Source of the DNA: a virus
Length of the DNA stretch: 64,000 bases
Reading direction: 5' to 3' (one strand)
IMG/VR virus record: IMGVR_UViG_3300028394_002011
This document shows, in pieces, positions 6,001 to 45,802 of this stretch. A program made the translations under genes and the position numbers. How positions within the stretch are numbered: position 1 is the stretch's first letter; every line of letters begins with the position of its first letter. The notes beneath the pieces were generated by a model. That model was given only the letters and a program-made list of their open reading frames with translations, was not told the DNA's origin and ran no database searches.

Positions 6001-8807
6001 GTATGGTTATTTCTAGTTCTGCAACTGGTACATATGTGCCTAGTACTTGTGTTATTCAAAGCATTGACAGTTCTACATTATTCACAGTCAGTCCAGCGGC
6101 TTGGATTCCAAGCGGAAGTAGCATTGTGTCAACACTGGTAGCATACTTGTCAGGATTGACTATTAGTAATCCCGGAACTAACTATACCGTAGTTCCTCAA
6201 ATTGAAATATCGGGTGGTGGCGCATTGGTGCAAGCTATTGTGACCTGCACAGTTGCCAATGGCAGTATACAATCAGTAACTATTGTTAGCCCAGGATACG
6301 GTTATAGCACTACTCCTAACGTTACTGTTAGCTATGGCGATGCAGTATTAACTCCAGTTCTCTCTGAATCGCCTCAGATTAATTCTACAGTGACAGCAGG
6401 TAACATAACAACTAGATTGGGGTTAATTTATGCTAGTGATCCTGGTGCATTTACTGCGGGTGCTAGCAGGACAGTTAGTGGATTTTCCAGCATTACTGGA
6501 AGCGGCCCATATGCGGTTAACTTAACTATAAATTCTGGTTCAGTACCAACAGCCGGCACGTGGTATCAAGTTACAGGTAATACAAATACACTGTATAATG
6601 GTTTTTATAAAGTTGACACTACCGGCTCAACAACAACTAATATTAGATTAATTTATAATTTTAATCCAGGAACATGGAGTACTAGCACACCTACCACAGT
6701 GATATTGTCAGTGACCAGCGGAACTAGTACTCAATTGGGTATCAGCAAACCATTCAGTACCGGAACCGCAGTGACTTTAAGAGCAGGATATCCTATAAAT
6801 TCATCAGCTCAAGTTACTACACGTATTAGTACTTGTCGTGTTACTGGTCATGATTTACTAGACATCGGAACTGGTAGTTATACCACTACAAACTGGCCAA
6901 CTGTGATTTACGGTAACCCTGCCAAAATTTATCAACAATCTCAAGAAATTAAAGAAGAAGGTGTGGGTCGTGTGTTCTATGTGACCACTGACCAAAACGG
7001 TATCTTCCGTGTGGGACGTTTCTTTACAGTTGACCAGGGAACTGGATCAGTTACATTCTCCGCAAGTATTGCGTTGAGTAACTTGGACGGTTTAGGATTC
7101 AAACGTGGTGTTGTGGTCAGTGAATTTTCAACTGATCCAAGCATGACCAACAACGCCAGTGACACTGTTCCTGTACAAAGTGCTATTAGAAGTTACATTG
7201 ATAAACGTTTGGGCATTGACCACGGAGGCAGTCCGGTTGCACTTGCAAGTTTGATTGGTTCAGGATATGTGCCATTAAACGGCACATTGGCCATGAAATC
7301 CACTTTCAACATGGGCAACTTTAATATTGTTAACTTGGGCACACCAGGTACTGACTACGAAGCCGCAAATAAATTGTATGTTGACAGCAGAGTACTGGCA
7401 TACAATTCTATCAACAAGTTAGTTGATACCACTGTGGTTAGTCCGTCAACAAATAATATTCTTGTGTACGACCAAACAGTGAGCAAATGGAAAAATAAAA
7501 CCATTACTGGTGACGTAAATCTTGATTTTAATACCAGCACTGGAGTGTTGTCTGCTGTTATACAACCAAGTTCAATTGTCAATACACAAATTTCACCCAG
7601 TGCTGGTATTCTGCAAAGCAAGTTGTTAATGACTATTGCCGGAGTATCTGGATCAGCGCCAAGTGGCAATGCGGCTTCAATACAGTCAAGCAATGGCGTG
7701 GCCAGTTTTAACTCTAACGAATTTACATTGTTCAACGGCTGGGCCAGTTTACGAACAAGCTCCAGTGCAAGCACTGGCGTAACGTTGAGTAAAATTCAAC
7801 AGATCAGTAACGGAACCATATTGGGTAACAGAAGTGGGTCCACTGCAAGTCCTGTTGAATTAACTCCTGCACAGGTAGTGGGAGATGCAGGTGGACTTAC
7901 TAATTCGTTATTCAATGCCAGCGGTGCTGTGACAGTGGCATTTGATGGCGTAAACGTGGCAAACAATGTGTATGCGGTAACAGGCATTACTACCACACGA
8001 GCTGTTAACAGTCTTGTTAAAACAGACAGTTCAGGCGGCATTGATGTCAACTATATAAAGATAGGTGGATATAAAGCATTAGGAATTACATCTTTAACTA
8101 ATACATTTACTACACCTGGCGGATTTGATTACATGACTGTGCTGGGAACAACGTCAAGTAATTCCAACATGACTGTGTTTGGTACATTGGATGTCAGCAA
8201 TGGTACATTAAAAACCAACTTGTTGACCACTGACAAATCAGGAGCGCCAAGTGGCCCTAACGCAGGCAGTGCCAGTATCAACGGCTGGTGGGCCATGCAA
8301 GCATCCAGTCAGATTGACTTTAGTCTTGGTACATTAAAATCTTTGACACTGACCACTGGCGGCGAAACTGTTGCAGGTACAATGACTGGACGTTGGACTC
8401 TCGCAGGTGCAAGTAGACTACAAGCTACTTACGCTGACTTGGCAGAATATTATGAAGGCGATCAGGAGTACGAAGAAGGCACAGTGCTGGTGTTTGGTGG
8501 TGACAAAGAAGTTACCACAACAACACAAATAAATGACACACGAAGTGCTGGCGTAGTCAGTGCTAACCCAGCATATGTGATGAATGGTGAACAAACTGGC
8601 ATCAAGGTTTGTATTGCACTGGCCGGTCGTGTGCCATGCAAAGTAATTGGGCGTGTTAAGAAAGGTGACATGCTGACCACCAGTGCCACTGCTGGTTATG
8701 CTGTTAAGGCTTTGAATCCTACTTTGGGTGCAGTAATTGGTAAGGCACTGGAAGACAAAGACTACGGAGAAGCTGGTATGATACAAGTTGCTGTGGGGAG
8801 AGTATAA
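3..8807 (+). CDS. Giant tail fibre/spike protein (>2900 aa, 5'-truncated): helical repeats, beta-helix (pectin-lyase-like) segments, C-terminal autocleaving chaperone-like domain
   Basis: The frame of ORF 117..8807 is open back to position 3 (IQSETIAYLNKKY...), so the true start lies upstream of the window. T/S/G/N-rich; repeated FIxxExxAYL...RDxxYxxxAxxYDLxxGGN units; C-terminal ADLAEYY...GVVS..PAYVMN...ALAGRVPCKV...IGKALE module resembling the phi29 gp12 / Peptidase_G2-type chaperone. Confidence 0.8.
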   Translation: MQSETIAYLNKKYVNYIPIDSARYNSIISNIVDGIGYDLVLNTNYNSVTQASKLFNPIYIDLVTEQLTQLLDGIDYAKNIILAYSYSTVNAQNYIGAVIDAICYDLVFQGSFQSIQIALAFGQYNTGLDLDEIKATLSNLQTTLVAIPSVALSTNAVSSITNNINLINNLLTTGDIPAVSFPSIQGTASGLVSARDLLLANIPFIQAEITAYLKANFPTVAYSKTRSERDINYIVWSVVYDLMYGGNQQSVYTGLQYWQGGVYQLLSSEKESWVAAINYINNLAQAIIINAQPSTVYQTSFRQYTNETVLGGSAASGSISTNIASIASIVNANSLPTPTVVLPTISAVSSVLLTARTDIVSQKTALKTAATTYINSNTSFSVINNDVINGIITANFDTIKNILTLGLGSRSVPTYVSPSGLASGYTYARQALLANSNFLVEETYAWQLVQTPSFVPSEGVASFKRRLNYFIEAVAYDITYGGNSGSLPTGYEYWINGVSTLSSTERSIYAQAIGRLQNIASLVSSNSVVTPTFQGVVSQTFNIIWVGGNAGQSIINERFSNISTIIQNNTSLVYVYPSLDGFDSVYKAARTTITGNKTSISASVINYLTAKYKGGFNYNEVTCYRDIGYIIEGMRIDLLTGGNYQTVTAGKSYYKSASARLAITTQLTETVDGLTFAKNLALQVLNQTSATRFQTLVAQVFNVSLTASAPAKTTFTNNMNTILSIITNGYGSAPAASFGTGIYTVVFGNGGNGYVDQGSPGSVHIIPAKILLGSTSGAAGTIVKYLPGSGASTDSIQVRLTKPAFFQTSEQMEFGETVKDLNITIFVESGVYYEDYPIRLPANCSIKGDEFRRTIIRPLDRISQSPWRKIFFYRDAVIDGLQIGLTNTSVDYATASSITLGSTTDKIIITLGSGQAQANWIGKIVQDNNVPPGKAVVESVAGNTMNCSVIYPFAVKTTYASGNWHLYGTYNYGRHYLTNPLDITSTSKNNRDIDVLLCGDATRVSNLTFQGHGGFAMVLDPEGQIKTKSPYGQVCSSFSQSVNRQAFRGGQFVDGFAGRLFGTITNVADAGITVTVTGSVNSGLDIRPPQAPCVFYVQGNRFQVNDVVSFDPATYTVVLTLDVSTPFNTVNIYNTANFSTAVGLRIDDLTNDLVLGSNFQSIKTGLYYLQTANVVVGIKQTYLLAGLNKTRDLMNSAISNGTSRGIITSQMTTITDMISSGLAALPAATFPEPLGVATNVSGAVNILKANKQFIRDELVAWVATNFATRGYLGYSAFDLSQRMGYLIDAMTYDLLYGGNSATRDIAQFYYSNSVSQIAGLEYLYSSAISKLISLVKSVAVNTTVTPTVGNISPQVTNLPAATSAQGTILANLASLAIDYILDGNFNNSIIGTITSGSANITNVSYNPALINGATIASAVNAGVPAGTTIVSYDPVTNIVVMSATATVTSTNLKLTVGGTVPSRIAPTTAGQNSQRIIDAGAIVSAKTSIQNGVISYLDSGGGTGINVEMGGNRSMLANDFAMINDLGYAIVATNGGVTEQVSTFTYYCHTHYWANNGGQIRSVAGSNAHGNYGLRSSGYDVTELPDSVKLANDMVQTAQVYKQGLVSTQMAPTATAQALGIWIIGYTYTPPNNAEIEIDHTASGGSIYRYLISTVEHTTITVNGQNVLKLNLSTAGTNSTITTGLAYALYDGQMLTIRVNQNIKFNDIDNVKPTRPSTAVQYSENLGDIYRIIAYNLTESTGELLPANVAVLQSDSSFSYYKFTTDGTNITQLDPSDSSKTQGSKVGDNKIAVLQISQQNQIDQLNKGIFLTGWNGRVHRITGYTPPLFIATGAFSSYDDATRRLIVTNVAGSIDIGDVVTGTGFSSGQTVSNVTFSGTGTITATVTLSAVANTTPAGTITFGVSKNGYLSIDPNAVLNNSADGSDVSSLNYNSKASGPTGTNYTQVFFDVPFTTTLPVVDSYLTIANQANTSYNGTYQVLSVISKTQISIASTSALSVGMVISSSATGTYVPSTCVIQSIDSSTLFTVSPAAWIPSGSSIVSTLVAYLSGLTISNPGTNYTVVPQIEISGGGALVQAIVTCTVANGSIQSVTIVSPGYGYSTTPNVTVSYGDAVLTPVLSESPQINSTVTAGNITTRLGLIYASDPGAFTAGASRTVSGFSSITGSGPYAVNLTINSGSVPTAGTWYQVTGNTNTLYNGFYKVDTTGSTTTNIRLIYNFNPGTWSTSTPTTVILSVTSGTSTQLGISKPFSTGTAVTLRAGYPINSSAQVTTRISTCRVTGHDLLDIGTGSYTTTNWPTVIYGNPAKIYQQSQEIKEEGVGRVFYVTTDQNGIFRVGRFFTVDQGTGSVTFSASIALSNLDGLGFKRGVVVSEFSTDPSMTNNASDTVPVQSAIRSYIDKRLGIDHGGSPVALASLIGSGYVPLNGTLAMKSTFNMGNFNIVNLGTPGTDYEAANKLYVDSRVLAYNSINKLVDTTVVSPSTNNILVYDQTVSKWKNKTITGDVNLDFNTSTGVLSAVIQPSSIVNTQISPSAGILQSKLLMTIAGVSGSAPSGNAASIQSSNGVASFNSNEFTLFNGWASLRTSSSASTGVTLSKIQQISNGTILGNRSGSTASPVELTPAQVVGDAGGLTNSLFNASGAVTVAFDGVNVANNVYAVTGITTTRAVNSLVKTDSSGGIDVNYIKIGGYKALGITSLTNTFTTPGGFDYMTVLGTTSSNSNMTVFGTLDVSNGTLKTNLLTTDKSGAPSGPNAGSASINGWWAMQASSQIDFSLGTLKSLTLTTGGETVAGTMTGRWTLAGASRLQATYADLAEYYEGDQEYEEGTVLVFGGDKEVTTTTQINDTRSAGVVSANPAYVMNGEQTGIKVCIALAGRVPCKVIGRVKKGDMLTTSATAGYAVKALNPTLGAVIGKALEDKDYGEAGMIQVAVGRV

Positions 8808-11800
8808 TGACTAAATTAAATGTTAATATTGGACAAAGTGTCAACGATAAAACCGGTGACACACTTCGCTCAGCGTTTGATAAAATAAATCAAAACTTTA
8901 CTGAACTGTATACCTTGACAGGTGGCACTAGTGCAGACTTGAGAGAGCTGGCGCAGGACTATGCGGCACCCATGTTCAATCATGCCAGTCACACCAACAT
9001 CACTGTGACCTATGATGATGCCAATAACAAAATATTACTAACTGGGGCGGCGGCACAGGTACAAAGCAACTGGACTGCAACTACTGGTTTGGGTGTTATA
9101 CTTAACAAGCCAACTATACCAGCTAGCTTTGCTGGCTATGACAATGAAATACAGGTTAGTCAAGTGGATGGTGATGACACTACTGGTAATGGTGACTTGC
9201 TGACGCCAGTTGCCACGATTACCAAAGCACTGACTTTGGTAACTGGCGAAAGAAGAACCATAATTATTCACCCAGGCACATATACTGAAAGCCCAACAAT
9301 AACAGTTCAATACACAGTGTTGACTACTCTGGCAACTGTGGGTGGTAGTACTGTTATTTCCGGAACTGTGACCGCAACCACTGGCTGTACTATTTCAGGA
9401 CTAAAAATAACAAACTTGACCAGCACGGCGGCATCTGGTACTGGAAATGTAAACATACTCAACTGCGATATCAGTGGCACACTCACAAAGAGTGGCTCGG
9501 GCTTATACACCCTGGTTCGCTTTACTGACTTCGGTGCCGCAACTATTAGTGGAAGTGGATTGGTTGATATCTATGGTGGCACTACAACATTTGTAACAGT
9601 TAGCAACGCTGCCGCAAATGTGCTGATTAAAAACGGTACTACCGTTGCTCCAGTCGTAACTGCGGGAAGTTTAAGCATAGTACAGATGGTGGTAGTTGCG
9701 GCCGTGACCAATGCTGTGACTACCAATGCTGGAACAGTTATTACCATGGCAAATTGCCAAATAGTAAATTCAGCATTGAATAACGTTGCTCCAGTTTCGT
9801 TAAGTGGTTTCTACTCAATCTTCAACTGTGTATATGACAAGCCTAGTTCAACCTTAGTAGCCCTGTCAGCAACAGGTGGTTCAACCAATTCCGTTGATTA
9901 CTTTCAGTTCATTAATGCTGATAGATTGATTTTGGCATCAGGTGGTAGAATAACATTCCCAGATAGCACAACGCAGACCACAGCCTGGCTTGGCAGTGTA
10001 AGCAGTTTGGTCAACGGTACAAAGACAGTGAGCCTTGGCTCGGATGGCACATTGACGCTACCAGCACAGTCAGCTACACTGACCAATGTGAATCAAATTG
10101 TATCAGCTAAAATCTATCGAGCTGGTGCCAGTACAGATACAGCCACAATACAAACTGCTCTAGATAATTGGATGGAGGCTGAGCAGGCGTGGATAGATAT
10201 ACGTACTGAAGATGCAATATCAAATGCCGCGGTCGGAAAACCTGCAAGACCGTGGGCAGGCATGCCCAGCTATACAGCATATCAACAGATAATGCTGTAT
10301 AACCCAACTGGCGGACAATTATCAGTACCCGGTAATATGGCGCCCACAGCCAAGACCGCAAGCGATAATTACCTAGCATACAAAGAACTGCAACGCAACA
10401 TTGACATTGTGGCAGGCACCAACACATTCAGCTTTGAGAACACTGGCGCCTTGAGAGTTCCAGGTGTAATTACCAAAAACAATAATCTCACATTGGTCAG
10501 TGTAGGCACAACCGTCTATCAAGGGTTATCTGATCAAGGATTACCTGTAGAGGTTCGAAACGATCTAACAGCGGCAGTTGTTGCTGACGGAGAGAATGGC
10601 AGAGTGTTCGTAAGAACAGATGATGGAACAACATTACGCACTTGGCAGTTTGATAAAGATGGCCTCTTGACATTCCCCAACAACACAGTTCAGACCACAG
10701 CCTGGCTTGGCAGTGTAAGCAGTTTGGTCAACGGTGGCAGCACATTGAGTCTTGCTTCAACTGGTGTATTGACATTTCCCAGCAACACCATTAAATCTGC
10801 GGTAGACACTGCGCTTGCAGTTACCACTCAGGAAACAGTGGTTACCACCAGTCCGACCTATAACAATGCAACAGCCTTCTCAACAGGCATAACAGTATAC
10901 GGCACATTTATACAGGGATGGTATCAACGCAATAGTCAACAGATTGAGTTTGCCCTGTTCGGAACCCCTGCGTTTGTGACCTATGTGACTGGACTGGCTC
11001 TAGGCACGGGTATGGGTGTGGTGTATGAAACATCCGGTGGCCAGCCTAATTTGTTTACTGGCACCATAACACAGGCATTCATCGCCCTAGGGCAATACGA
11101 TCCAGCACATCCAACCTGGCAGCGTGTGAGTGGTAGAGTAGACGGCACACTGCCTAACAATACGGGTATCCGTAGTGTATCTTTTTCAACCTCAAGCACA
11201 GTTCCACATAATTTTACATTTGGCACAGATGGTAGTTTAAGATTGCCCAACGATGCTGTGATAAAAGATACTGCTGGCGATGCTGTAGCATTTGGACAAA
11301 ATGCTGGTACAAATGGTCAAGGCGATTATGCAGTAGCAGTTGGTAAAGATGCTGGTATCAACACCCAAGGTACTTTAGCAGTGGCAGTTGGTCTTTCGGC
11401 TGGAGAAACTAATCAGGGCGCAGGGGCGGTGTCGGTTGGTAGGCTTGCTGGCAATTTTAACCAGGGTGCAAATGCAGTAGCAGTTGGAGCATATGCTGGT
11501 AATAACGGTCAAGCTAACAATTCGATCATATTGAATGCTACTGGCTCTGCCTTGAATCAAACTACAGCCAACACATTCACAGTAGCTCCGGTTAGAAATG
11601 CCACTGGTACAAGTGGCATATTACAATACAACTCTACTACCAAAGAAGTCACATACAGCAATACGATCACTGTTAATAGTAGCACCTGGACCTTTGGCAC
11701 AGATGGTAATTTATCATTGCCCAACTCAGCTGTTATTGGTCAAGCAAGTGATGTTGAAATCACTGCCGCGGCCACAGCCTATACTGATAGTTTGACTTTT

Positions 11801-13462
11801 TGGGCTGGTGTACGAGCCAGTTATCAGGCACAGGCCGATAATTTGGGTCTCACATCTTCTAATTGGCCATTTATAGCGTGGAACGTAACCGGCCCAACTG
11901 CCACAGATTTTCAACAACAGCTTACAACAGCGTGGTCAAGACAGAATGCCTCGATATCCAGTCCACCACTGCCGCTGATATTTCAGCCTCCTATCACAAC
12001 CTCAGCGTATGCTGAACTTAGATATGCAATTACAGTTGTTGGAACTGCCTGGGATACTTGGCAAGCATTGCTGACCAGTGTGGAGATTACCTCAGGTAGC
12101 GAATCGATTACATTGTTGAGCAATGGCAAAGTGGTTGTTCCCAATATCATCCAAACTGATCCAGAAGAAGATCTTGTTATTAGAACTAGATATGCTAGTG
12201 CGACCAGCCCACCGAGCACAACAAGCTATACCAATCGAGATTTTACATTTAGTACCAATGGAAACTTAACTATTCCAATTGGCATTGCCAGCACCACAGG
12301 TAATTCACGAATTACACCAAATTCAACTGTGTCTAGTAAATTCTTTAACTTTTTTGTAGACGGCTCAAATGGGGCATATACCAGCTCTTTGTTAGACATG
12401 CCTGTGGCGGAAAATAACAAAACAGTTAGTGTTCAATTCTATCACTCTAATAACACTGTTGGCAATCTTTGGAATCAAGGTACAGATACTATTGGTCTAA
12501 CCAATTTCAACAATGCGTTTAATATCTTGGGATTGCGTACTGATATAAAACTTACGGCAGAGGATAGTTCAAGTAACCGATTTACGTGGACGTTTGATAA
12601 GACCGGAATATTAACAGTACCGGGCAGTGTAGTTGGTACAGCCACACAAAACGTATTCAATACCACATCAACCACAGTCAACGCATTTGGTGCGGCCACT
12701 ACGCTGAACATGGGCGCGGCAGGCGGCACTACTACCATTGCTGGCGACTTGGTTGTTAACGGTACCACAACCACTATCAATTCAACAACTGTCACAGTTG
12801 ATGACAAGAACATTGAACTTGGCAGTGTTGCATCACCAACCAACACCACAGCTGATGGCGGCGGTATCACACTGAAAGGTACTACTGATAAAACCATAGT
12901 CTGGGACAATGCCAATACCAACTGGACTGCAAGTGAACATTGGAACATTGCTTCAGGCAAGTCCTACAAGATCAACAATGTTGCTGTACTAACTGCTACA
13001 GCCGTGTTGAATGATGCAAGTCAAACTTCTGTCACCATTGCTGGCAATGCTACTACTGCATTGACTATCGGTGCTAGCGGTGCACCTATTACTGGCTTTG
13101 CGGCAACTGCTACCACATCAAGTACAGCTTCTAGTCTAGGTTATCTTGGCTTGCCACAAAGTGCTACAGCTACCACTGCCACATTGGCCATAGGTGATGC
13201 TGGCAAACACATTTATGTAACTACAGCAAGTCAGACCATAACCATTCCAGCCAATGCATCAGTGGCTTATCCAATAGGAACCACTCTTACATTCATAGCA
13301 GGACCAAGTGCTACCACAGTCAGCATTGCTATCACATCAGACACACTGAGATTAGCAGGTGGCACAAGCACTGGCACAAGAACACTGGCTGCAAATGGTA
13401 TGGCCACAGCAGTCAAAGTGGCAAGTACCACTTGGTACATCAACGGAACAGGACTAACATAA
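8807..13462 (+). CDS. Mosaic tail fibre/adhesin protein (1551 aa)
   Basis: N-terminal NDKTGDTLRSAFDKINQNFTELY (T4 gp9/gp10-like anchor motif); recurring WTFGTDGxLxLP / TFPDxTxQTTAW linkers; YadA-head-like AVAVGxxAG repeats; stop/start overlap with the upstream gene. Confidence 0.8.
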   Translation: MTKLNVNIGQSVNDKTGDTLRSAFDKINQNFTELYTLTGGTSADLRELAQDYAAPMFNHASHTNITVTYDDANNKILLTGAAAQVQSNWTATTGLGVILNKPTIPASFAGYDNEIQVSQVDGDDTTGNGDLLTPVATITKALTLVTGERRTIIIHPGTYTESPTITVQYTVLTTLATVGGSTVISGTVTATTGCTISGLKITNLTSTAASGTGNVNILNCDISGTLTKSGSGLYTLVRFTDFGAATISGSGLVDIYGGTTTFVTVSNAAANVLIKNGTTVAPVVTAGSLSIVQMVVVAAVTNAVTTNAGTVITMANCQIVNSALNNVAPVSLSGFYSIFNCVYDKPSSTLVALSATGGSTNSVDYFQFINADRLILASGGRITFPDSTTQTTAWLGSVSSLVNGTKTVSLGSDGTLTLPAQSATLTNVNQIVSAKIYRAGASTDTATIQTALDNWMEAEQAWIDIRTEDAISNAAVGKPARPWAGMPSYTAYQQIMLYNPTGGQLSVPGNMAPTAKTASDNYLAYKELQRNIDIVAGTNTFSFENTGALRVPGVITKNNNLTLVSVGTTVYQGLSDQGLPVEVRNDLTAAVVADGENGRVFVRTDDGTTLRTWQFDKDGLLTFPNNTVQTTAWLGSVSSLVNGGSTLSLASTGVLTFPSNTIKSAVDTALAVTTQETVVTTSPTYNNATAFSTGITVYGTFIQGWYQRNSQQIEFALFGTPAFVTYVTGLALGTGMGVVYETSGGQPNLFTGTITQAFIALGQYDPAHPTWQRVSGRVDGTLPNNTGIRSVSFSTSSTVPHNFTFGTDGSLRLPNDAVIKDTAGDAVAFGQNAGTNGQGDYAVAVGKDAGINTQGTLAVAVGLSAGETNQGAGAVSVGRLAGNFNQGANAVAVGAYAGNNGQANNSIILNATGSALNQTTANTFTVAPVRNATGTSGILQYNSTTKEVTYSNTITVNSSTWTFGTDGNLSLPNSAVIGQASDVEITAAATAYTDSLTFWAGVRASYQAQADNLGLTSSNWPFIAWNVTGPTATDFQQQLTTAWSRQNASISSPPLPLIFQPPITTSAYAELRYAITVVGTAWDTWQALLTSVEITSGSESITLLSNGKVVVPNIIQTDPEEDLVIRTRYASATSPPSTTSYTNRDFTFSTNGNLTIPIGIASTTGNSRITPNSTVSSKFFNFFVDGSNGAYTSSLLDMPVAENNKTVSVQFYHSNNTVGNLWNQGTDTIGLTNFNNAFNILGLRTDIKLTAEDSSSNRFTWTFDKTGILTVPGSVVGTATQNVFNTTSTTVNAFGAATTLNMGAAGGTTTIAGDLVVNGTTTTINSTTVTVDDKNIELGSVASPTNTTADGGGITLKGTTDKTIVWDNANTNWTASEHWNIASGKSYKINNVAVLTATAVLNDASQTSVTIAGNATTALTIGASGAPITGFAATATTSSTASSLGYLGLPQSATATTATLAIGDAGKHIYVTTASQTITIPANASVAYPIGTTLTFIAGPSATTVSIAITSDTLRLAGGTSTGTRTLAANGMATAVKVASTTWYINGTGLT
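9974..10018 (+). repeat. 45-bp exact direct repeat, copy 1 (tail fibre gene)
   Basis: cagaccacagcctggcttggcagtgtaagcagtttggtcaacggt, identical to 10691-10735; encodes QTTAWLGSVSSLVNG. Confidence 0.95.
10691..10735 (+). repeat. 45-bp exact direct repeat, copy 2 (tail fibre gene)
   Basis: Identical to 9974-10018, in the same reading frame. Confidence 0.95.
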
Positions 13463-13463
13463 T

Positions 13464-14168
13464 ATGACAGGCGTATCAGCATTAATGACCAGCTATGGCG
13501 GAACGAGTGGACCCGCATTGGTATTAGATCTAGATGCGGCCAATTATTCGGCAGTTCCAGTCAATGGCAGTACAATAGCAGGCACTGGGGCTTTTGCTAT
13601 AACCACAAGCAATACCAACAGCAGTATGGCGTGGGCATCAACTGCTGGTGGCATATTCCGCAAGACCACTGCCAACGACACAGATATGTTGAGGTTTGGC
13701 CCAAATTATTCATCCTCTTCACAGGCCTATACAGTGATGATGGTTTACCGATCACAGTCAGGCACAGCAGGTAGATTGTTGAACGCCAATACTGCTAGTC
13801 CGGACTGGTTAATGGGACTATGGGGTAATTCCGGTGGGGTACAAGATATCTTCTTCAACGGGTCATTTTTAGGCAGTAGTAGCACAGCTCAAACAGGTGC
13901 TTGGAGATTTGCTTGGATGACATCTAACGGCACTACTACCACAAATGCCTATGCGGCCGGCAGTACTGCTCCTACCGGCACTCACGGAACTAGAGCTGGT
14001 GTCAGTGGATTTAACGGCCTAAGATTGTTTGGTAGATATGTCAGTTCCGTCCAAAATACAGAAGTTGTAACTGCTGATGTGGGCTTGGTCAAGGTCTGGG
14101 ACGGCGTATTGACCTTGGCACAGATACAGGCACAGCATGAAGCATACAGAACAAGATTTGGATATTAA
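13464..14168 (+). CDS. LamG/concanavalin A-like lectin domain protein (putative fibre-tip adhesin)
   Basis: LVLDLDAAN N-terminus and ADVGLVKVWDGVLTLAQIQAQHEAYRTRFG C-terminus, typical of phage LamG domains; directly follows the fibre gene. Confidence 0.7.
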   Translation: MTGVSALMTSYGGTSGPALVLDLDAANYSAVPVNGSTIAGTGAFAITTSNTNSSMAWASTAGGIFRKTTANDTDMLRFGPNYSSSSQAYTVMMVYRSQSGTAGRLLNANTASPDWLMGLWGNSGGVQDIFFNGSFLGSSSTAQTGAWRFAWMTSNGTTTTNAYAAGSTAPTGTHGTRAGVSGFNGLRLFGRYVSSVQNTEVVTADVGLVKVWDGVLTLAQIQAQHEAYRTRFGY

Positions 14169-14941
14169 TGAAAGCATTTGTTATCATACTACAAGAAAGT
14201 GAACACAGCCGTAAGGTTGGTGCTGAAGCCATTGAGGCTGCTCGCAAGTTTGGCATTGAACCCGAAGTACACAACGCGGTACTGGGATACAATGCTCCAG
14301 AACTATTTGCCAAGTATGGCATTACTAGATTCTTAACTAGGGACTTGATTGACAATCCTGGACATCAAGGTTGCTTTCTCAGCCATTTTGAACTGTGGAT
14401 GAAATGTGTCAAGTTGGACGAACCCATTATTATCTTGGAACACGATGGTGTTTTTATTCGCCCACTACCAGATGACTTGTTGGACAAGTTTAGTGGTGTA
14501 CTGAAACTGGAACCATACGATGTGTTTGTGGACAGTTATGAAGGCAAAGTGGATGCCAGTTTGAATGATCCAGTAGATGTATGGCATCCGCCAGCAAGAA
14601 ACACTTGGCACGGTGTGGGAGAGTTCCTCTGGGGTGCTTACGGATACATTATCAAACCACACGCCGCTATGGAACTAATACAGTTTGCCCGTAGAATAGG
14701 TGCGGCTCCCACTGATGTACACATTGGTCGCAACATTGTGGACATTAAAGCAACTACAGCAACAGTGGTTAGAATGAGCAAGACCTATACTGAAAACGAT
14801 GTAAAAGGCATGAGTAGCACCAGCAACTTGCATCAGTACGTGCCGGGACACAATCGCATGGCGCTAGCACCTTATTTGAGCCCTAAAAAGTATGCTGAAC
14901 TCATCAAGACTTTAGAGTTCCTAGAAACGGTAAATATATAA
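14168..14941 (+). CDS. Glycosyltransferase family 25
   Basis: GCFLSHFELW, IIILEHDG (EDD-like) and GAYGYIIKPHAA motifs of GT25; TAATG overlap with the LamG gene. Confidence 0.8.
   Translation: MKAFVIILQESEHSRKVGAEAIEAARKFGIEPEVHNAVLGYNAPELFAKYGITRFLTRDLIDNPGHQGCFLSHFELWMKCVKLDEPIIILEHDGVFIRPLPDDLLDKFSGVLKLEPYDVFVDSYEGKVDASLNDPVDVWHPPARNTWHGVGEFLWGAYGYIIKPHAAMELIQFARRIGAAPTDVHIGRNIVDIKATTATVVRMSKTYTENDVKGMSSTSNLHQYVPGHNRMALAPYLSPKKYAELIKTLEFLETVNI
14931..14936 (+). promoter_or_regulatory. T4-like late promoter core TAAATA
   Basis: TAAATA 19 nt upstream of the ATG at 14955. The same hexamer precedes other structural genes (19697, 25580, 28192, 33983, 38238). Confidence 0.5.
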
Positions 14942-14954
14942 AACGGAGCAGAAC

Positions 14955-15506
14955 ATGCCAATACAACGAATTGAAATAGGTGGATATGCAAATGACGGTA
15001 CTGGTGACGATTTGCGCACGGCATTTAACAAGGTTAATGCTAACTTTGCGCTGTTGGACAGCGATGCACAGATCAATGACGGTGTTAACCTGGGATCTGG
15101 CACTGCTGTACTAAAGGGTAAAACCAGCACTATATTACAGTTTAAAAGTATTACCAGTACAGATAACTCAGTTACACTGACCGCAACTGATAACACAGTA
15201 AATTTAAAAGCCAACACACGATTAGTAGAAGATATTACGCCCGCACTGGGCGGCAATTTAAATTTAAATAACAGAGATATTGTCGGAGCAGGCGATGTAA
15301 AAGCCAGTGTTTATGGAATTGATATTGTAGCTCTTAACTCTATGATAGCCTTGCTGATCGAATCCAACAACAACATTGCTATTGACTTTGGATCATTTAA
15401 CAATCCTACAGGTTACGAAACTAACGCTCGTGGTTATACATTTGACATGGGCACCTTTATTGGTCCGCAATCCGCTAACAGATTTAGTTTTGGCACATTT
15501 GTTTAA
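14955..15506 (+). CDS. Baseplate/tail-fibre connector-like protein
   Basis: N-terminal ANDGTGDDLRTAFNKVNANF, a T4 gp9/gp10-like motif shared with ORF 8807. Confidence 0.6.
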   Translation: MPIQRIEIGGYANDGTGDDLRTAFNKVNANFALLDSDAQINDGVNLGSGTAVLKGKTSTILQFKSITSTDNSVTLTATDNTVNLKANTRLVEDITPALGGNLNLNNRDIVGAGDVKASVYGIDIVALNSMIALLIESNNNIAIDFGSFNNPTGYETNARGYTFDMGTFIGPQSANRFSFGTFV

Positions 15507-15518
15507 CAGAGAAAATGC

Positions 15519-18500
15519 ATGGCATTGAATATTTGGTCACAACCGTCAGGCTACTCATTTGGAACATTCCAAGAACAAGCTATTTTTAATAGGCCATTGC
15601 CATTAGTCCCGGCTGCCGGTTATGGCGGTGTTCCTCCGCCTAGTTATGACGGTACTGGGCATCATCCAAATTTTCCATTACGTAACTCAGCAGGCAGTTC
15701 TTTTAGTCGTTATCCGGTAAACAGCTATACAGACGGTATGCATGCCATGCGTACTGATTTACCAAATGCACGTACTGTTAGTAATCAAGTTGTATGGGAT
15801 CAAGTAAATGAAGGTGAAACTACTGATCCAACTGGCTATAGTGGATTTATGTACGCATGGGGTCAATTCATAACTCATGAGCTAGCATTCGAAAGAACTG
15901 GTGGTGCTAATATAGATGTTATAGTACCTGCTGGAGATACTAACCTAACACCAGGAAGTCATATTCCTGTATCTCGTGCGCAAGTTGCCGCAGGCACTGG
16001 GATCAATGGCGTTGTTGCACTACCAATCAACGATGTAACCGGATGGATCGATGGTAGTGTAGTTTACGGTATCGCTTATCCTCCAGATGTTACGCCAGTG
16101 AGTGGATTTACAAATCCACTGCTAATTCGAGAAGGCGGCCAAAATGCAACGACCGGAAAGTTATCAACTTCGGCAGGTGGACAATACGGACCTATTGATC
16201 CTACTACAGGACAATTTATATTCGGTGATCCTCGCGGCGCTGAAAATCCAGATTTAACGTCAATACAAACTTTGTTTATACGTGAACACAATTGGCATGC
16301 TACTAGATTAGCACAACTGCATCCCACTTGGAGTGGGGAACAGATTTATCAACGTGCTCGTAGTATCGTAATCGCCGAAGAACAAGTTATCACATATAAA
16401 GAATGGTTGCCAAAAGTTTTAGGAGCAACGGCTATACCTGCTTACACAGGATTTAAACCCGATGTTGATGCTAGTATTAAAGTTGAATTTGCCGCTGCCG
16501 CGTTAAGATTTGGTCATAGTATTGTTTCGGGCGCACAGGATCGTATAGATGAACAAGGTAATGATACAGAAGCATTAGCGTTAGCCGATGCATTTTTCCT
16601 AACTCCTGCGCAATTTGAACGTAATGGTGGTGCAGACGGATTCTTGCGTAAACTGGCGGCAGACATTTCAAACAAGTTAGACGTACATATTATTGAAGAT
16701 TTGCGTAATTTATTAGATGATCCTCCTGCCGCACTAGATTTAGCCGCAACAAATATTCAACGTGGGAGAGATTTAGGTCTTCCAAGTTTAAATCAAATGC
16801 GTACTGCATTAGGCCTTACCCCTTATACAGCTTTTAATCAGATTACATCTGATATTACTGTATCAACGGCATTACAAACAGCGTATGTCAATATTGATAA
16901 TATAGATTTATGGGTAGGTGGTCTAGCTGAAAATCGTGTAGTCGGATCAATGGTCGGAGAAACTTTCCGTACTATAATGATTGATCAATTTATCCGTCTC
17001 CGCGATGGTGATAATCAATGGTACGAAAATCAACCCTGGGCACCAGGAGACCTTACATGGTTAAGAAATTCTACCCTAGCAGATATTATATTACGAAATA
17101 CAGATACTGTTAAAATACAACCAGATGTATTTGTTGCTGTTGAACGTGCAGATTTATATTCAGGAGTAGTAACTAGCGCCGTTGCAAGAACTGGCGGTGG
17201 TGATATTCCAGGATCAAATACTATCCCGTTTAATCTAAATGTTATATCAGGATCATTACCTCCAGGATTAAACATTGTTGGTAATACAATTACAGGTACT
17301 CCATATTCAGTAGCTGACATCACTGTGTTTACATTTTGTGTGAGAGCAACATCTACCTCAGGCGAAATAGCTGACCGAACATATTCTATAACCATAGACG
17401 GAGCAGATGCTCCAGAATTTATAACTACAACTGGAAGATTGGCAGTTGGCACACATAAGCAAATGTATGTGTTGGACCAGACTTATATCAATTATCAAAT
17501 TGAAGCATTCGACTTAGATACAAGTGCTGGTCAAAAATTAACATATTTTATATCCTCAGGCGATGGAAATCTGCCGCCAGGATTGACCATGTCGTCAGAT
17601 GGAAAAATTAGCGGATTTATTTTACCTGCTATAAAGATTAAACCAGCAGATAATAACGGCACTTACGACGAAACATACTACGATGCGGCAGCTTTTGACT
17701 TTGGTCTACGAGCAACCAACGGATTTGATAGTTACATTTACGATAGAGTTTTTTATGATTATAATTTACCCAATCTTCGACCATCAACACTAAATGTTAA
17801 TTATCAATTTAAAGTAACTGTGTCCGATGGTACCAGTATTGCTCAGAGAATTTTTAAAATATTTGTTGTGGGCGATGGCCAATTTAGAGCAGACACCACT
17901 ACCACAGATGGATTTGCCGATGAGCTATTCACCGCTGACGTTACTTATCTTAGACAGCCAGCATGGCTTACCAACCCCAACATAGGATTATTTAGAGCCA
18001 ATAACTATCTAACTGTACCAGTTGCACTGTATGATGACTCCAATGTGTTTTATAATTTAGAATTGATCAATCAGGAAGTAAAAGCTCAAGCAGTCAATAT
18101 TTTACCTTCAGACAATTTTAAAAACGGAAATAAAATAACTGTAACTAACGTTACTGGAACCATACAGCCTGGATATTATTGCCACTTTGAAGGCATAATC
18201 CCAGGTGCAACTGATCAACTTTATAAAATCAGTGTGGTGGAGAATTTAGGCAATGGGCGTTATCGTCTCACTATCCTAACACCGCTACAAGTAAGCATAC
18301 CAACAGGAACCAGTTTTTATATTGGAACATTGAGTGTGTTACCCAAAGGTACCAATTTTGATATACAGACTGCTACAGTATACGGACTGGTTCCATATCA
18401 GCCAGCTATCACAAAAACTTATAACTTTACTATCACTGCCACCAGATTTGGAGACAAACAAGACAGTGCAACTGCATCCAGAACATTTACTATTGGTATT

Positions 18501-19736
18501 ATTGGCGAGATTGACAGTGTAATAACATGGCTAACTGATGCCGACTTGGGCAACATCAATGCAAACTTTATTTCTAATTTACATGTGGCCGCTTCAAGTA
18601 CCATCCCTGATGCAATTATTTCCTATACGTTAACAAGTGGATCACTGCCTCCAGGGTTATCGCTAAATTATGACGGAGAAATTATAGGCAAGGTCAATCA
18701 ATTTTATGATGCTGTTTCTGGATCAAAAGGCCTTACGAGATTTTACGACACAGTTGGCTCAAGTAGAAAATTTATAACTTTTGATTTTGATACTACCAGT
18801 ATAGACAAGCAATATACGTTTACCGTGCAAGCTAGAGATCAATATGACTATAGTGCAACTACTCGCACATTTACCTTGTACATTGATACCCCAAACGATA
18901 TAAGTTTCAGTAATATCAGAACCAAGCCGTTCTTAAAACAATCACAACGAGCTCTTTGGAAATCATTCATTACTGATACTTCTATTTTTACACCTAGTAG
19001 CATTTATAGAACCAATGATGCTAATTTTGGAGTTCAGACTGATTTAAACATGATGGTATATGCTGGTATAGAAACCAAAGATGCCGCTAGGTTTGTTGGT
19101 GCAATTGGTTTGAATCACAAAAGAAAACGATTTGCTTTTGGCCCAGTTAAATCCGCAGTTGCTATTCAGCCCGGTACTACCGATACAGTATATGAAGTGA
19201 TATATGTCAGTGTTGTGGACCCGCAAGAGCCAAACGGCAACTATTTGCCAAGAAATATTCAATTACCAGGGCTGTCTAGCGATACTATAACTATCGATAG
19301 CAGTACCAATATTTGGAGTAGAACTTTGGATTCATTAGGTGCCGACAGTCCGGAAAACATTAGGCCGGAGCCAATAATCACAGCCGACAGCACAGGTTAC
19401 GAAGTTTCAAATCCCAATGTCAATACCTATTTTCCAAACAGTATTACCAATTGGCGTAGCAGGATTAAAGATACGGGTGCAACAGAGAGGAACTACATGC
19501 CTTTATGGATGCGTAGTATACAACCTGGGAATAGTCAAGAATTAGGATTTGTGTTGGCTATTCCAATTTGTTACTGCGAAGCGGGCAAAAGTGCTGATAT
19601 TTTATTAAATATCCAACACAGCGAATTTGATTTTAAATCTTTAGATTACACAGTGGACAGATACATAATAGATTCTGTCACCGGTTCGATTAACGATAAA
19701 TATCTTGTATTTAGAAACGATAGGATAACAGTATGA
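15519..19736 (+). CDS. Baseplate-wedge-like Ig-repeat structural protein with inserted animal-type heme peroxidase domain (1405 aa)
   Basis: About 15642-17155 encodes WGQFITHEL (distal Gln/His), GDPRGAEN (catalytic Arg, Glu), LRFGHS (proximal His), NIQRGRDLGLP, IDLWVGGLAE and QFIRLRDGD. The remainder has three SGxLPPGL putative-Ig repeats. Structural gene context. Confidence 0.85.
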   Translation: MALNIWSQPSGYSFGTFQEQAIFNRPLPLVPAAGYGGVPPPSYDGTGHHPNFPLRNSAGSSFSRYPVNSYTDGMHAMRTDLPNARTVSNQVVWDQVNEGETTDPTGYSGFMYAWGQFITHELAFERTGGANIDVIVPAGDTNLTPGSHIPVSRAQVAAGTGINGVVALPINDVTGWIDGSVVYGIAYPPDVTPVSGFTNPLLIREGGQNATTGKLSTSAGGQYGPIDPTTGQFIFGDPRGAENPDLTSIQTLFIREHNWHATRLAQLHPTWSGEQIYQRARSIVIAEEQVITYKEWLPKVLGATAIPAYTGFKPDVDASIKVEFAAAALRFGHSIVSGAQDRIDEQGNDTEALALADAFFLTPAQFERNGGADGFLRKLAADISNKLDVHIIEDLRNLLDDPPAALDLAATNIQRGRDLGLPSLNQMRTALGLTPYTAFNQITSDITVSTALQTAYVNIDNIDLWVGGLAENRVVGSMVGETFRTIMIDQFIRLRDGDNQWYENQPWAPGDLTWLRNSTLADIILRNTDTVKIQPDVFVAVERADLYSGVVTSAVARTGGGDIPGSNTIPFNLNVISGSLPPGLNIVGNTITGTPYSVADITVFTFCVRATSTSGEIADRTYSITIDGADAPEFITTTGRLAVGTHKQMYVLDQTYINYQIEAFDLDTSAGQKLTYFISSGDGNLPPGLTMSSDGKISGFILPAIKIKPADNNGTYDETYYDAAAFDFGLRATNGFDSYIYDRVFYDYNLPNLRPSTLNVNYQFKVTVSDGTSIAQRIFKIFVVGDGQFRADTTTTDGFADELFTADVTYLRQPAWLTNPNIGLFRANNYLTVPVALYDDSNVFYNLELINQEVKAQAVNILPSDNFKNGNKITVTNVTGTIQPGYYCHFEGIIPGATDQLYKISVVENLGNGRYRLTILTPLQVSIPTGTSFYIGTLSVLPKGTNFDIQTATVYGLVPYQPAITKTYNFTITATRFGDKQDSATASRTFTIGIIGEIDSVITWLTDADLGNINANFISNLHVAASSTIPDAIISYTLTSGSLPPGLSLNYDGEIIGKVNQFYDAVSGSKGLTRFYDTVGSSRKFITFDFDTTSIDKQYTFTVQARDQYDYSATTRTFTLYIDTPNDISFSNIRTKPFLKQSQRALWKSFITDTSIFTPSSIYRTNDANFGVQTDLNMMVYAGIETKDAARFVGAIGLNHKRKRFAFGPVKSAVAIQPGTTDTVYEVIYVSVVDPQEPNGNYLPRNIQLPGLSSDTITIDSSTNIWSRTLDSLGADSPENIRPEPIITADSTGYEVSNPNVNTYFPNSITNWRSRIKDTGATERNYMPLWMRSIQPGNSQELGFVLAIPICYCEAGKSADILLNIQHSEFDFKSLDYTVDRYIIDSVTGSINDKYLVFRNDRITV
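19697..19702 (+). promoter_or_regulatory. T4-like late promoter core TAAATA
   Basis: gaTAAATAt about 30 nt upstream of ORF 19733. Confidence 0.4.
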
Positions 19737-20824
19737 CCAGTCAAATAAATGTCGGAACAATTAACACATCTTACCCAGTTGCAGGTGTTGACAATAACAG
19801 CCAAGGGTTTCGTGATAATTTTACAGCTATTTCAGCAGGATTAGCCATTGCCAAAACAGAACTTACCGCATTGCAAACCAATGCAGTGTTAAAAGCCAAC
19901 CTCACAACCAACGCAGTTGTTAACAACGACCTAAATGGTAGCACTATAAGCAATGGCTTGTACAATAGATTTTACGGCGTGTATTTTAGCGGAGGCACTG
20001 TTTCAACAGCTTCTAATGTAGATTTAATTAACGGTCCTGTGCAGAGATTCATTCTAGCAGGAGATGCAACTTTAACATTTACAGGATGGCCAACTGCGGG
20101 CAAAATGGGATTAATTCGTGTATTGATTGCCAGCGATCAAAACGGAGTGCGAACACCAGGATTTGCAACTAGTGGTGGCGGATCTATTAGATATGATGTG
20201 GCATATCCCACATTGCCAAACAGCACAACTTATGGATTTAAAGTTGGTGGGGAAAGTGTTAAAAGCGTCACCGTTACTGAACCAGGAAGTAAATATATTA
20301 CTCCCACTACTATTTCTTTTACTAGTCCAACATTAGCTGGTGGTACAGTTGCAACCGCAACTGCCAAGTACAAAGTTCTGTCAGCAACTGCTAGTTCAGG
20401 TTCGCTAGGTTCTAATTATGCCAACGGTGATTTGCTAGTTGTAAATCAAGACACAAGTATTGTGTTATCAGTCACTGGAGTTAACGGTTCAGGTGGTATT
20501 ACCAACGTCAGCGTCAGTACTAACGGCCCGTTGGCAATACCACTGGCTGGTTCAAAAACTGTTACAGCATTAACTGGCATAGGTTCAGGAGCAAGAGTAG
20601 ATTTAGTATGTGCTATTGACAGTATAATTGTTACAGATGGCGGAGACGGCTGGACTACTGTGCCACCGCAAGTTACTATAGGAGCTCCTGCGGTTACTGG
20701 AGTACAAGCAACTGCAACTGCTGTATTAACAACCATAACTAATGATAACGTTAAAGTTATAGAAGCATGGAGTATCGACGGCGGTCTCAATGTATATCTT
20801 CGATATTTAGGCGAATACAATTAA
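19733..20824 (+). CDS. Putative virion structural (tail/baseplate) protein
   Basis: T/G/V-rich beta-type sequence with SVTVTEPGSKY / SIIVTDGGDGW repeats; translationally coupled to the structural operon. Confidence 0.55.
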   Translation: MTSQINVGTINTSYPVAGVDNNSQGFRDNFTAISAGLAIAKTELTALQTNAVLKANLTTNAVVNNDLNGSTISNGLYNRFYGVYFSGGTVSTASNVDLINGPVQRFILAGDATLTFTGWPTAGKMGLIRVLIASDQNGVRTPGFATSGGGSIRYDVAYPTLPNSTTYGFKVGGESVKSVTVTEPGSKYITPTTISFTSPTLAGGTVATATAKYKVLSATASSGSLGSNYANGDLLVVNQDTSIVLSVTGVNGSGGITNVSVSTNGPLAIPLAGSKTVTALTGIGSGARVDLVCAIDSIIVTDGGDGWTTVPPQVTIGAPAVTGVQATATAVLTTITNDNVKVIEAWSIDGGLNVYLRYLGEYN

Positions 20825-21064: not shown

Positions 21065-21577
21065 ATGCGCCTAGACAAATACAGTAATCCTATATTTTCA
21101 GAACAAGACCTGTTTGATGCTTTGTATCAAAGTTATCAATTTGATGCAACGGATACCTTACTAGTTGATCAGCGATCTGACGCAATCAAACAACTGGAAT
21201 CCAAAATAGGATTTAAATTCCTAGAACCTTACGATACTCACTTTGAAGTCAGTGACTACGATTTTGCTTGCCAATCAAATTGGTACATGCCCGAAGAATA
21301 CAAAACACTGGATATAGAAGCGTGGATTTGGCAACAAACACCACCCTGGGATCCGCAACACACCAGAGTTACTGAAGAACTATCAGCATTCAAAGAACGC
21401 AATATGCTGGATTTATTGCGTTGGCTCAAATATTTTGTAGATACTTGCGATAAAAACAATGTGGTTTGGGGAGTAGGCAGAGGATCCAGTGTGGCCAGTT
21501 ATATACTCTATTTGATAGGGGTACACCATATCGATAGTATTAAATATAATCTTGACTGGCAGGAATTCCTGAGATAA
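21065..21577 (+). CDS. Stand-alone DNA polymerase III alpha (DnaE)-like fragment (170 aa)
   Basis: VWGVGRGSSVASYILYLIGVHHIDSIKYNL matches the DnaE VGxGRGSxAGSLVAYxLGITxIDPxxYxL block; no PHP domain and no catalytic DxD. Confidence 0.7.
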   Translation: MRLDKYSNPIFSEQDLFDALYQSYQFDATDTLLVDQRSDAIKQLESKIGFKFLEPYDTHFEVSDYDFACQSNWYMPEEYKTLDIEAWIWQQTPPWDPQHTRVTEELSAFKERNMLDLLRWLKYFVDTCDKNNVVWGVGRGSSVASYILYLIGVHHIDSIKYNLDWQEFLR

Positions 21578-30611: not shown

Positions 30612-31092
30612 TCCAATATTAAAACAATCAGCAACGCCTTGGCAATTTGAAAGTGCAGAAGATTGTGAACAGGCGGCACGTGTCGAGCAAGAGATGCTTA
30701 GTTTAATGAAGATATCAAACGGTATAGGACTTGCCGCACAACAAGTTGGATTGTTGAAACGTGTATTTGTCATGCGTACTCAGGATGGTCGAGAGTGTGG
30801 GCTGTTTAATCCCGTTATCCTTGAAGTAAATAATGAAAAAGCCGTAGGGGACGAAGGATGTTTGAGTTTTCCAGATTTATGGTTAAAAGTTGAACGCAGT
30901 ACAAGTTTGATTGCAAAATACCTTGACAATACAGGCATAGAGCGTATAATACAATTAGAGGGTCTAGATGCCAGATGTTTCTTACACGAACTAGATCATT
31001 TGGATGGCGTATGTTTTACAGATGGACTAAGTCCACTTAAACTAGCAATGGCAATTAAAAAACAGAGGAAATTAAATGGTAGAACCAAGTGA
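30589..31092 (+). CDS. def: Peptide deformylase
   Basis: [17 protein letters not shown] and HELDHLDG motifs; likely start ATG 30589 ([11 protein letters not shown]). Confidence 0.93.
30923..30950 (+). promoter_or_regulatory. Consensus sigma70 promoter inside def, pointing at clpA
   Basis: TTGACA (30923-28), 16-nt spacer, TATAAT (30945-50), about 125 nt before the clpA start. Confidence 0.6.
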
Positions 31093-45789: not shown

Positions 45790-45802
45790 TATGGAGAATA
45801 TA

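Follow-up and report, generated by a model that had tools for sequence, protein, structure and literature searches.

A stretch of viral DNA 64,000 nucleotides (nt) long (IMG/VR record IMGVR_UViG_3300028394_002011), called the window below, encodes an animal-type heme peroxidase domain carried near the N-terminus of a protein of 1405 amino acids (aa) with immunoglobulin (Ig)-like repeats. The reading we favour, at somewhat better than even chances, is that this protein is an active heme peroxidase displayed on the virion, bound to its heme by one ester bond, and that it would perform local oxidative chemistry at the host surface.

The gene lies on the + strand (15519..19736), and the open reading frame (ORF) list and the translation agree that the frame is open over 1405 aa. 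Residues 42-538 match the Pfam family PF03098 (An_peroxidase) over positions 3-530 of the 530 in the profile (E 8.9e-118, 394.6 bits against a cut-off of 25), so that the complete domain announced by the initial annotation is indeed present, with nearly the full profile covered. The carrier, i. e. the protein around this domain, matches He_PIG in two stretches (67.1 bits against a cut-off of 24), as do its homologues. No cysteine was found in the peroxidase domain, which hence has no disulfides. The features of the gene that concern the peroxidase are the following.

15519..19736, + strand: whole gene, the 1405-aa carrier with its peroxidase insert (ORF list, translation, Pfam).
15519..15629, + strand: conserved N-terminal segment, residues 1-37 (M-A-L-N-I-W-x-Q-P-S-G-Y ... 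P-L-P-L-V ... G-Y-G-G).
15612..17333, + strand: residues 32-605, a recombinant tract from the allele type that bears the peroxidase, within a gene of the type of G001, the nearest virus record (allele identities).
15630..17234, + strand: insert relative to G001, residues 38-572, made of an N-linker, the peroxidase domain and a C-linker (protein and DNA alignments).
15642..17155, + strand: heme peroxidase domain PF03098, the stretch initially flagged (Pfam, match to PDB 8S6C, dN/dS).
15864..15881, + strand: distal site with Gln116, Thr119 (position of MPO-Asp94), His120 and Glu121 (calcium ligand position) (alignment to 8S6C and 6ERC).
16038..16058, + strand: calcium-binding loop Thr174-x-Trp176-x-Asp178-x-Ser180 (column conservation).
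16233..16247, + strand: catalytic Arg239, heme-ester Glu242 and Asn243 (position of MPO-Met243) (32/32 phage sequences).
16515..16517, + strand: proximal His333 (32/32 phage sequences, 130/130 others).
16752..16772, + strand: proximal Asn412 and the Arg415/Arg417/Asp418 block (N-I-Q-R-G-R-D) (column conservation).

The motifs WGQFITHEL, GDPRGAEN, LRFGHS, QRGRD and QFIRLRDGD, on which the initial annotation had based its assignment, all occur in the translation in the order it gave, and its codon positions for the distal His120 (15876) and the proximal His333 (16515) are correct. The closest solved structures are CyanoPOX (8S6C, E 1.5e-81, query 3-502) and DdPoxA (6ERC, E 9e-72), followed by dual oxidase, MPO, LPO and EPO at about 1e-50. 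Aligned to 8S6C and 6ERC, the domain has the distal triad Gln-His-Arg (Q116, H120, R239), and the proximal triad His-Asn-Arg (H333, N412, R415) is present as well. Column conservation was measured in an alignment of 32 phage-type sequences and 130 other top matches. Nine residues (Q116, H120, R239, E242, H333, W176, D178, R417 and D418) do not vary at all within the phage clade, while N412, R415 and T174 deviate in one sequence each. Judged from the same alignment, the residues of the distal Ca2+ site (T174, W176, D178, S180) are conserved, position 180 being Ser, Thr or Cys in the phage clade and position 121, the calcium ligand position, Glu or Asp.

The departure from the usual pattern is at the position of MPO-Asp94, where the Thr initially reported (Thr119) was recovered. 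Thr occupies this position in 30/30 phage sequences, against Asp in 124/130 others, and among bacterial genome homologues Asp was found in all 78 whose extracted domain covers the distal motif. The two-ester pattern of the LPO/EPO/LspPOX/peroxidasin type is thus incomplete, with Glu242 present and Thr119 at the Asp position. MopA, an oxidiser of Mn(II), combines two peroxidase domains with hemolysin-type calcium-binding repeats in one large protein. In the 1405-aa protein, Pfam found a single PF03098 stretch and no family of RTX repeats, so the MopA-type architecture is absent. As to membership of family 6, the best solved matches are DdPoxA, which belongs to it (PMC5787809), and CyanoPOX, a short bacterial peroxidase. 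DdPoxA, peroxidase A of Dictyostelium discoideum, holds its heme by one ester bond, through Glu; Ile stands at the Asp position and the Fe(III)/Fe(II) potential is low. Its oxidation of I− and SCN− is very fast and that of Br− poor, and Cl− is not oxidised (PMC5787809). Because it has Glu242 and a Thr at the Asp position, the phage domain should be, by analogy, a one-ester peroxidase of the DdPoxA kind. By the same analogy (PMC5787809), the oxidation of chloride or bromide appears unlikely, which speaks against the hypohalous oxidants first suggested as products. CyanoPOX, for its part, was obtained as holo-enzyme from the cytoplasm of E. coli and has iodide as its best substrate (PMC11776367).

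Selection acts on the cassette, as first argued from the intact catalytic residues. Ratios of nonsynonymous to synonymous substitution rates (dN/dS) of the peroxidase against twelve relatives range from 0.07 to 0.21, and the sole pair with an unsaturated dS, that with L016, gives 0.11 (dN 0.018, dS 0.16). With dN/dS around 0.1, the values cited for selection being 0.07-0.13, and key residues that hardly vary in the phage clade, the cassette is maintained by purifying selection. Within the same proteins, the peroxidase is 69-82% identical in aa, against 48-62% for the carrier.

The insertion is best seen against G001, a genome of 356 kb (96% complete), which encodes a counterpart of 871 aa. This protein has 86-91% identity to residues 1-37, through its own residues 1-35, 99% to residues 573-1405, and nothing in between; PF03098 was found nowhere in the 356 kb of G001. 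At the DNA level, identity to G001 stops directly past the P-L-P-L-V codons, returns through roughly 90 nt at ~80%, and is near-perfect from ~17327. The segment of residues 1-37 is common to the carriers without insert, to all fusion ORFs and to the carrier consensus. The clean in-frame insertion that the initial annotation had anticipated is therefore seen against a carrier 99% identical to the one studied here. As for its place in the fold, the first He_PIG match begins at profile position 30 in the present protein and at position 34 in G001, and the first third of the profile found no Pfam alignment with residues 1-33 in either allele; a position of the insert inside the first He_PIG domain is thus a conjecture that Pfam does not support.

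That G001 lacks the insert precisely at the domain borders is also what an assembly chimera, or a recent bacterial contaminant, would look like. But the scan of IMG/VR gave 25 contigs encoding the peroxidase domain, at 68-97% identity, among which at least 20 complete fusion ORFs of 1343-1639 aa have an N-terminus identical in type. In addition, the 90% protein cluster contains, besides the 871-aa protein, members of 1333-1406 aa, including one from a separate archive, an ENA assembly (P0132). That at least 20 contigs, assembled separately from many samples, have the in-frame fusion, as does the ENA assembly, rules out a chimeric assembly for practical purposes: the fusion is real. A contaminant fits no better, as the GC content at third codon positions (GC3) of the domain is phage-like and below that of the carrier, and cellular relatives are only 46-53% identical. 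Taken together, this artefactual explanation has a negligible probability.

The present allele is a mosaic of two types. Residues 32-605 follow the P0132 type: the peroxidase is 96% identical to it, and residues 573-605 agree at 32/33 positions, against 26/33 for the G001 type. From residue 606 to 1405 the situation is reversed, with 795/800 positions identical to the G001 type and 745/800 to P0132. This pattern indicates that homologous recombination between alleles of the gene exchanged the cassette, and short carrier flanks along with it. On a larger scale, the last 831 residues of the carrier have at least 1631 relatives, mostly of 860-950 aa and without insert; of the 120 best-matching ones, roughly every twelfth has PF03098. 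A tree of 145 carriers was built from the columns from residue 606 onward only. The 28 peroxidase-bearing carriers are scattered on it, at least 13 changes between presence and absence being needed, while the phage peroxidase domains themselves form one clade (support 0.93). One domain clade on scattered carriers means a single capture, followed by repeated loss or by transfer between alleles.

Two further architectures were found. P0137 (1555 aa) has a 53%-identical peroxidase in the loop of a later He_PIG (carrier ~487-506) of a distant carrier. In P0135 (761 aa), a 72%-identical peroxidase is enclosed by a tail-fibre-like protein whose two ends bear fibre-type repeat motifs. Both show that it is the enzyme itself that is sought. 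Conversely, in other homologues, for instance P0027 and P0033, the peroxidase slot holds a module of ~70 aa. From these comparisons, the carrier loop is a general display slot for modules.

Other parts of the carrier vary too. A second variable slot, 15 residues upstream of the peroxidase slot and about 15 residues from the N-terminus, holds a module of 59-77 aa in 34 homologues (examples are the N-termini of P0018, P0019, P0023, P0027 and P0033), and this module matched no family. In P0057, P0060, P0077 and P0087 (~915 aa), a loop in the middle of the carrier, at position ~335-400, contains a CBM5/12 carbohydrate-binding domain. Finally, P0016 (945 aa, 86% identical carrier, without peroxidase) has a ubiquitin domain (PF00240, E 1.9e-12) ahead of the N-terminus.

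The phylogeny initially called for was expected to point to the donor. It did resolve a single phage clade, but no donor phylum can be named: the closest cellular relatives, 46-53% identical over the whole domain, belong to Alphaproteobacteria, freshwater picocyanobacteria and Mycobacteriaceae, three groups about equally distant. The GC3 of the peroxidase is 0.218, compared to 0.292 for the carrier, and is also below that of the neighbouring genes, which indicates an old capture. A recent transfer from a high-GC donor is excluded by this low GC3 and by cellular matches of at most 53%. Directly beside the phage clade on the tree (support 1.0) stand two genes from short contigs with 62-63% GC that were binned as Chloroflexota (L089 and L093). 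Each encodes a circularly permuted protein with a signal peptide, and each has the Thr as well. In this pair (L089:1-2711; L093, ORF from about 874, frame 0), the distal-His segment G-Q-F-L-T-H-E-I stands at the C-terminus, placed after the phage-type post-domain linker. On the basis of its sequence, the permuted gene looks derived from a tandem duplication of the phage-type domain.

We now turn to the carrier and its surroundings, whose features are listed below.

17202..17396, + strand: first He_PIG Ig-like domain, residues 562-626, the match beginning at profile position 30 (Pfam).
17235..18854, + strand: Ig/cadherin-like repeat body of the carrier (AlphaFold model m594d195da6ab, Foldseek).
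18855..19733, + strand: C-terminal domain with a predicted 2H-phosphoesterase-like fold, without HxT/S motifs (model mcde73e18a6f9, VIA, BFVD).
14955..15506, + strand: 183-aa protein next upstream, its N-terminus bearing a T4 gp9/gp10-type motif (PHROGs).
19733..20824, + strand: downstream neighbour, 363 aa, its start overlapping the stop of the peroxidase gene (blastp to Atu_ph07 gp328).
8807..13462, + strand: upstream fibre-like structural protein of 1551 aa (phrog_6002 'virion structural protein', E 2e-17).

Modelled with AlphaFold, carrier residues 573-1405 gave a pLDDT (predicted local distance difference test) of 72.9, and Foldseek returned cadherin/Ig arrays only. The C-terminal 293 residues, modelled alone (pLDDT 76.6), are predicted to adopt a 2H-phosphoesterase-like fold. 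VIA aligned this model to Usb1 with Z 11.4 (root mean square deviation 3.8, 173 aligned), and twenty 2H-fold chains had Z of at least 7, the next chain being at 4.6; the E-values of Foldseek were weak. No H-x-[TS] motif was found in residues 1113-1405. A catalytic 2H enzyme at the C-terminus was dropped as a candidate, both H-x-T/S motifs being missing, and for this same reason the modelled domain is probably structural. In BFVD, it matched 'Ig' proteins of uncultured phages and the Atu_ph07 protein gp329 (E 1.9e-11). The same domain ends gp329 and, more remotely, a protein of the Klebsiella phage K64-1.

The initial annotation had called the carrier a baseplate-type or wedge protein. This identity was not upheld: PHROGs gave no baseplate family for the carrier, and the fold searches gave only Ig/cadherin arrays and 2H-phosphoesterase-like chains, an absence that does not in itself exclude such a family. 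The neighbourhood is more telling. The 183-aa protein just upstream matches baseplate wedge and tail fibre connector families of PHROGs (E 1e-5 to 1e-6, N-terminal residues only), and the 1551-aa protein further upstream bears a T4 gp9/gp10-type motif at its N-terminus. From the window start to 20824, all genes share one strand and either overlap or are separated by a few bases only. The DNA polymerase is nearest to those of Sinorhizobium phage Phosso and Agrobacterium phage Atu_ph07, then to those of Rak2-like coliphages. In Atu_ph07, gp329 combines a subtilase (Peptidase_S8), He_PIG repeats and the shared C-terminal domain, and gp328 comes next downstream; the N-terminus of the 363-aa downstream gene product in the window is 50% identical to gp328 (blastp E 7e-12). 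By position, gp329 thus corresponds to the carrier and gp328 to the downstream gene product. Both gp329, with 3 peptides, and gp328 are listed in the virion proteome of Atu_ph07 (PMC6102473 Table S5). By its sequence and gene context, the carrier is a He_PIG/Ig-repeat protein in a tail-fibre-like gene cluster of a Rak2/Atu_ph07-like jumbo phage, uncultured and from fresh water. The neighbouring genes and the proteomics of gp329 and gp328 make its association with the virion plausible, by analogy with Atu_ph07.

As the place of the carrier on the virion is deduced in this way, and since it accepts many unrelated inserts (ubiquitin-like, CBM5/12, small modules of no matched family), one may ask whether the peroxidase fold is a mere binding or structural module, or whether the protein acts inside the infected cell, off the particle. 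We consider this improbable. The residues on which heme ligation and the formation of compound I depend (Gln, His and Arg, the proximal triad, Glu242, the calcium loop) are kept in ~30 sequences, down to 68% identity, an invariance that a binding module would not require and that argues against a merely structural role, and the gene belongs to a tightly packed run of structural genes whose stops and starts overlap or nearly abut.

Other observations were made on the window. Two giant ORFs precede the gene, 3-8807 (no fewer than 2934 aa, cut by the window start) and 8807-13462 (1551 aa), and neither matched a Pfam family. Within the run of fibre genes, 14168-14941 encodes a glycosyltransferase of the GT25 family (PF01755, E 2.7e-12), an ORF that also has a weak PHROG match to '2OG-Fe(II) oxygenase'. 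Downstream, an ORF of 170 aa (21065-21577) matches only the end of the 'DNA polymerase' PHROG phrog_11127 (E 1e-37), and a full family-B polymerase is encoded at 45791-48472. A 757-aa ATP-dependent protease (31076-33349; phrog_4871, E about 1e-251) adjoins the replication genes. Sigma-70-like sites and terminators around the gene were no commoner than in shuffles, and the window contains neither the T4 late-promoter word TATAAATA nor any tRNA.

The course of events that we propose is as follows. The cassette was captured once, and it moves between alleles or is lost by homologous recombination in the carrier flanks. Because it has no cysteines, the domain should fold and take up its heme inside the cytoplasm of the host, as CyanoPOX does in E. 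coli, and the peroxidase would then be borne on the virion. Glu242, without an Asp partner, would form a single heme ester bond, as in DdPoxA. Supplied with ambient or host-made H2O2, the enzyme would oxidise iodide, thiocyanate, phenolics and tyrosines, and not chloride or bromide. During adsorption, such chemistry at the host surface may modify, loosen or cross-link envelope polymers, a role that would parallel that of the hydrolytic or binding modules on the carriers of relatives, the subtilase in Atu_ph07 and CBM5/12 elsewhere.

Several points weigh against this proposal. Heme loading, ester formation and activity are predictions by analogy, and two of the putative substrates, iodide and thiocyanate, are scarce in lake water. 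The fold of the carrier resembled neither baseplate nor fibre proteins in the searches, and the sole proteomic support comes from gp329, with its 3 peptides (2% coverage), which is 24% identical and in the C-terminal part only. The closest relative, G001, manages without the peroxidase, which is hence an accessory domain. Lastly, dS is mostly saturated, leaving one reliable estimate of dN/dS.

An accessory character is also what is expected of a trait that depends on the environment. The displayed peroxidase might serve to protect the virion itself, using up H2O2 with dissolved phenolic or humic donors to shield the very large capsid, the fibres or the DNA from peroxide formed photochemically in sunlit lake water. 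The catalytic site is intact and selected, as this demands, and the relatives come from many metagenome samples, with a metagenome-assembled genome from Lake Biwa as the single hint of habitat. However, the few enzyme copies per fibre could not lower the bulk H2O2 near the particle, and peroxidases generate radicals and oxidants that are potentially damaging to the virion. The subtilase and the CBM5/12 domains found on the same type of carrier point to the host surface instead, and we regard self-protection as unlikely.

Rather unlikely as well is a cross-linking enzyme which, by dityrosine-type bonds of the peroxidasin or ovoperoxidase kind, would harden the fibre network of the phage once assembled or lock the fibre covalently to a protein of the host surface. 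The pairing of peroxidase and Ig-like domains does recall peroxidasin (PMC3533774), and a one-ester enzyme would, by analogy, be competent for the one-electron oxidation of tyrosine and phenols. Yet the sulfilimine chemistry of peroxidasin needs HOBr, which one-ester enzymes make poorly, G001 builds the same fibre set without peroxidase, and no substrate motif for cross-linking was found. A displayed one-ester enzyme acting on the host surface stays our preferred reading.

More generally, we put forward tentatively, at less than even chances, that in some jumbo phages a redox heme enzyme serves as a weapon of the adsorption apparatus, for an H2O2-driven attack on the envelope or for covalent bonding to it. 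As part of this, the change from Asp to Thr would tune the enzyme of this lineage to one-ester, low-potential chemistry. If true, oxidative chemistry would be added to the ways in which phages treat the cell surface, distinct from all known hydrolytic or lytic virion enzymes, and infection would be tied to ambient peroxide, hence to light and oxygen in lakes. The phage clade would represent, by analogy, a second, independent one-ester lineage beside DdPoxA, free of cysteines and expected to be easily expressed. The display slot is of interest for phage engineering, as a loop of a widespread Ig-repeat protein takes both a 530-aa heme enzyme and small domains that match no family, exchanged by homologous recombination.

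To our knowledge, the enzymes described on phage particles are hydrolases, lyases and esterases, and no heme redox enzyme is among them. Among 50,697 deposited phage genomes, tblastn with the phage domain or with a bacterial query found no PF03098 match, megablast of the peroxidase gene against deposited phage genomes found none either, and our literature searches returned no phage or virion heme peroxidase. The 'prophage-encoded peroxidase' of Liberibacter (SC2_gp095) was set aside, being listed as a glutathione peroxidase.

Among known peroxidases, DdPoxA (6ERC) is homologous to the phage domain over the full length and shares with it the Gln-His-Arg and His-Asn-Arg triads, the heme-ester Glu and a non-acidic residue at the position of the second ester. 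DdPoxA is however a secreted, glycosylated, stand-alone eukaryotic protein with Ile at that position, whereas the phage domain has Thr, no Cys, and is inserted in a 1405-aa protein. CyanoPOX (8S6C, from Cyanobacterium sp. TDX16) is of bacterial size and gives the best solved match, but it has both ester residues (Asp80, Glu202), stands alone, and its identity to the phage domain is modest. Many bacterial PF03098 proteins have secretion signals or RTX-type tails, and none is fused to a phage carrier. Peroxidasin (family 2) also joins a peroxidase to Ig-type domains in an extracellular scaffold; it differs by its leucine-rich repeats, C2-type Ig, vWFC, both ester residues and HOBr chemistry, none of which is seen in the phage protein. 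On the side of the carrier, gp329 of Atu_ph07 ('extracellular serine proteinase precursor') is alike in its N-proximal enzyme, its He_PIG repeats and the shared C-terminal domain. Its enzyme is a subtilase at the true N-terminus and not a peroxidase in a loop, and the identity (~24%) covers the C-terminal third only. Tail-spike and fibre depolymerases, and other virion-borne enzymes, likewise consist of an enzyme on an adsorption protein, exchanged as a cassette.

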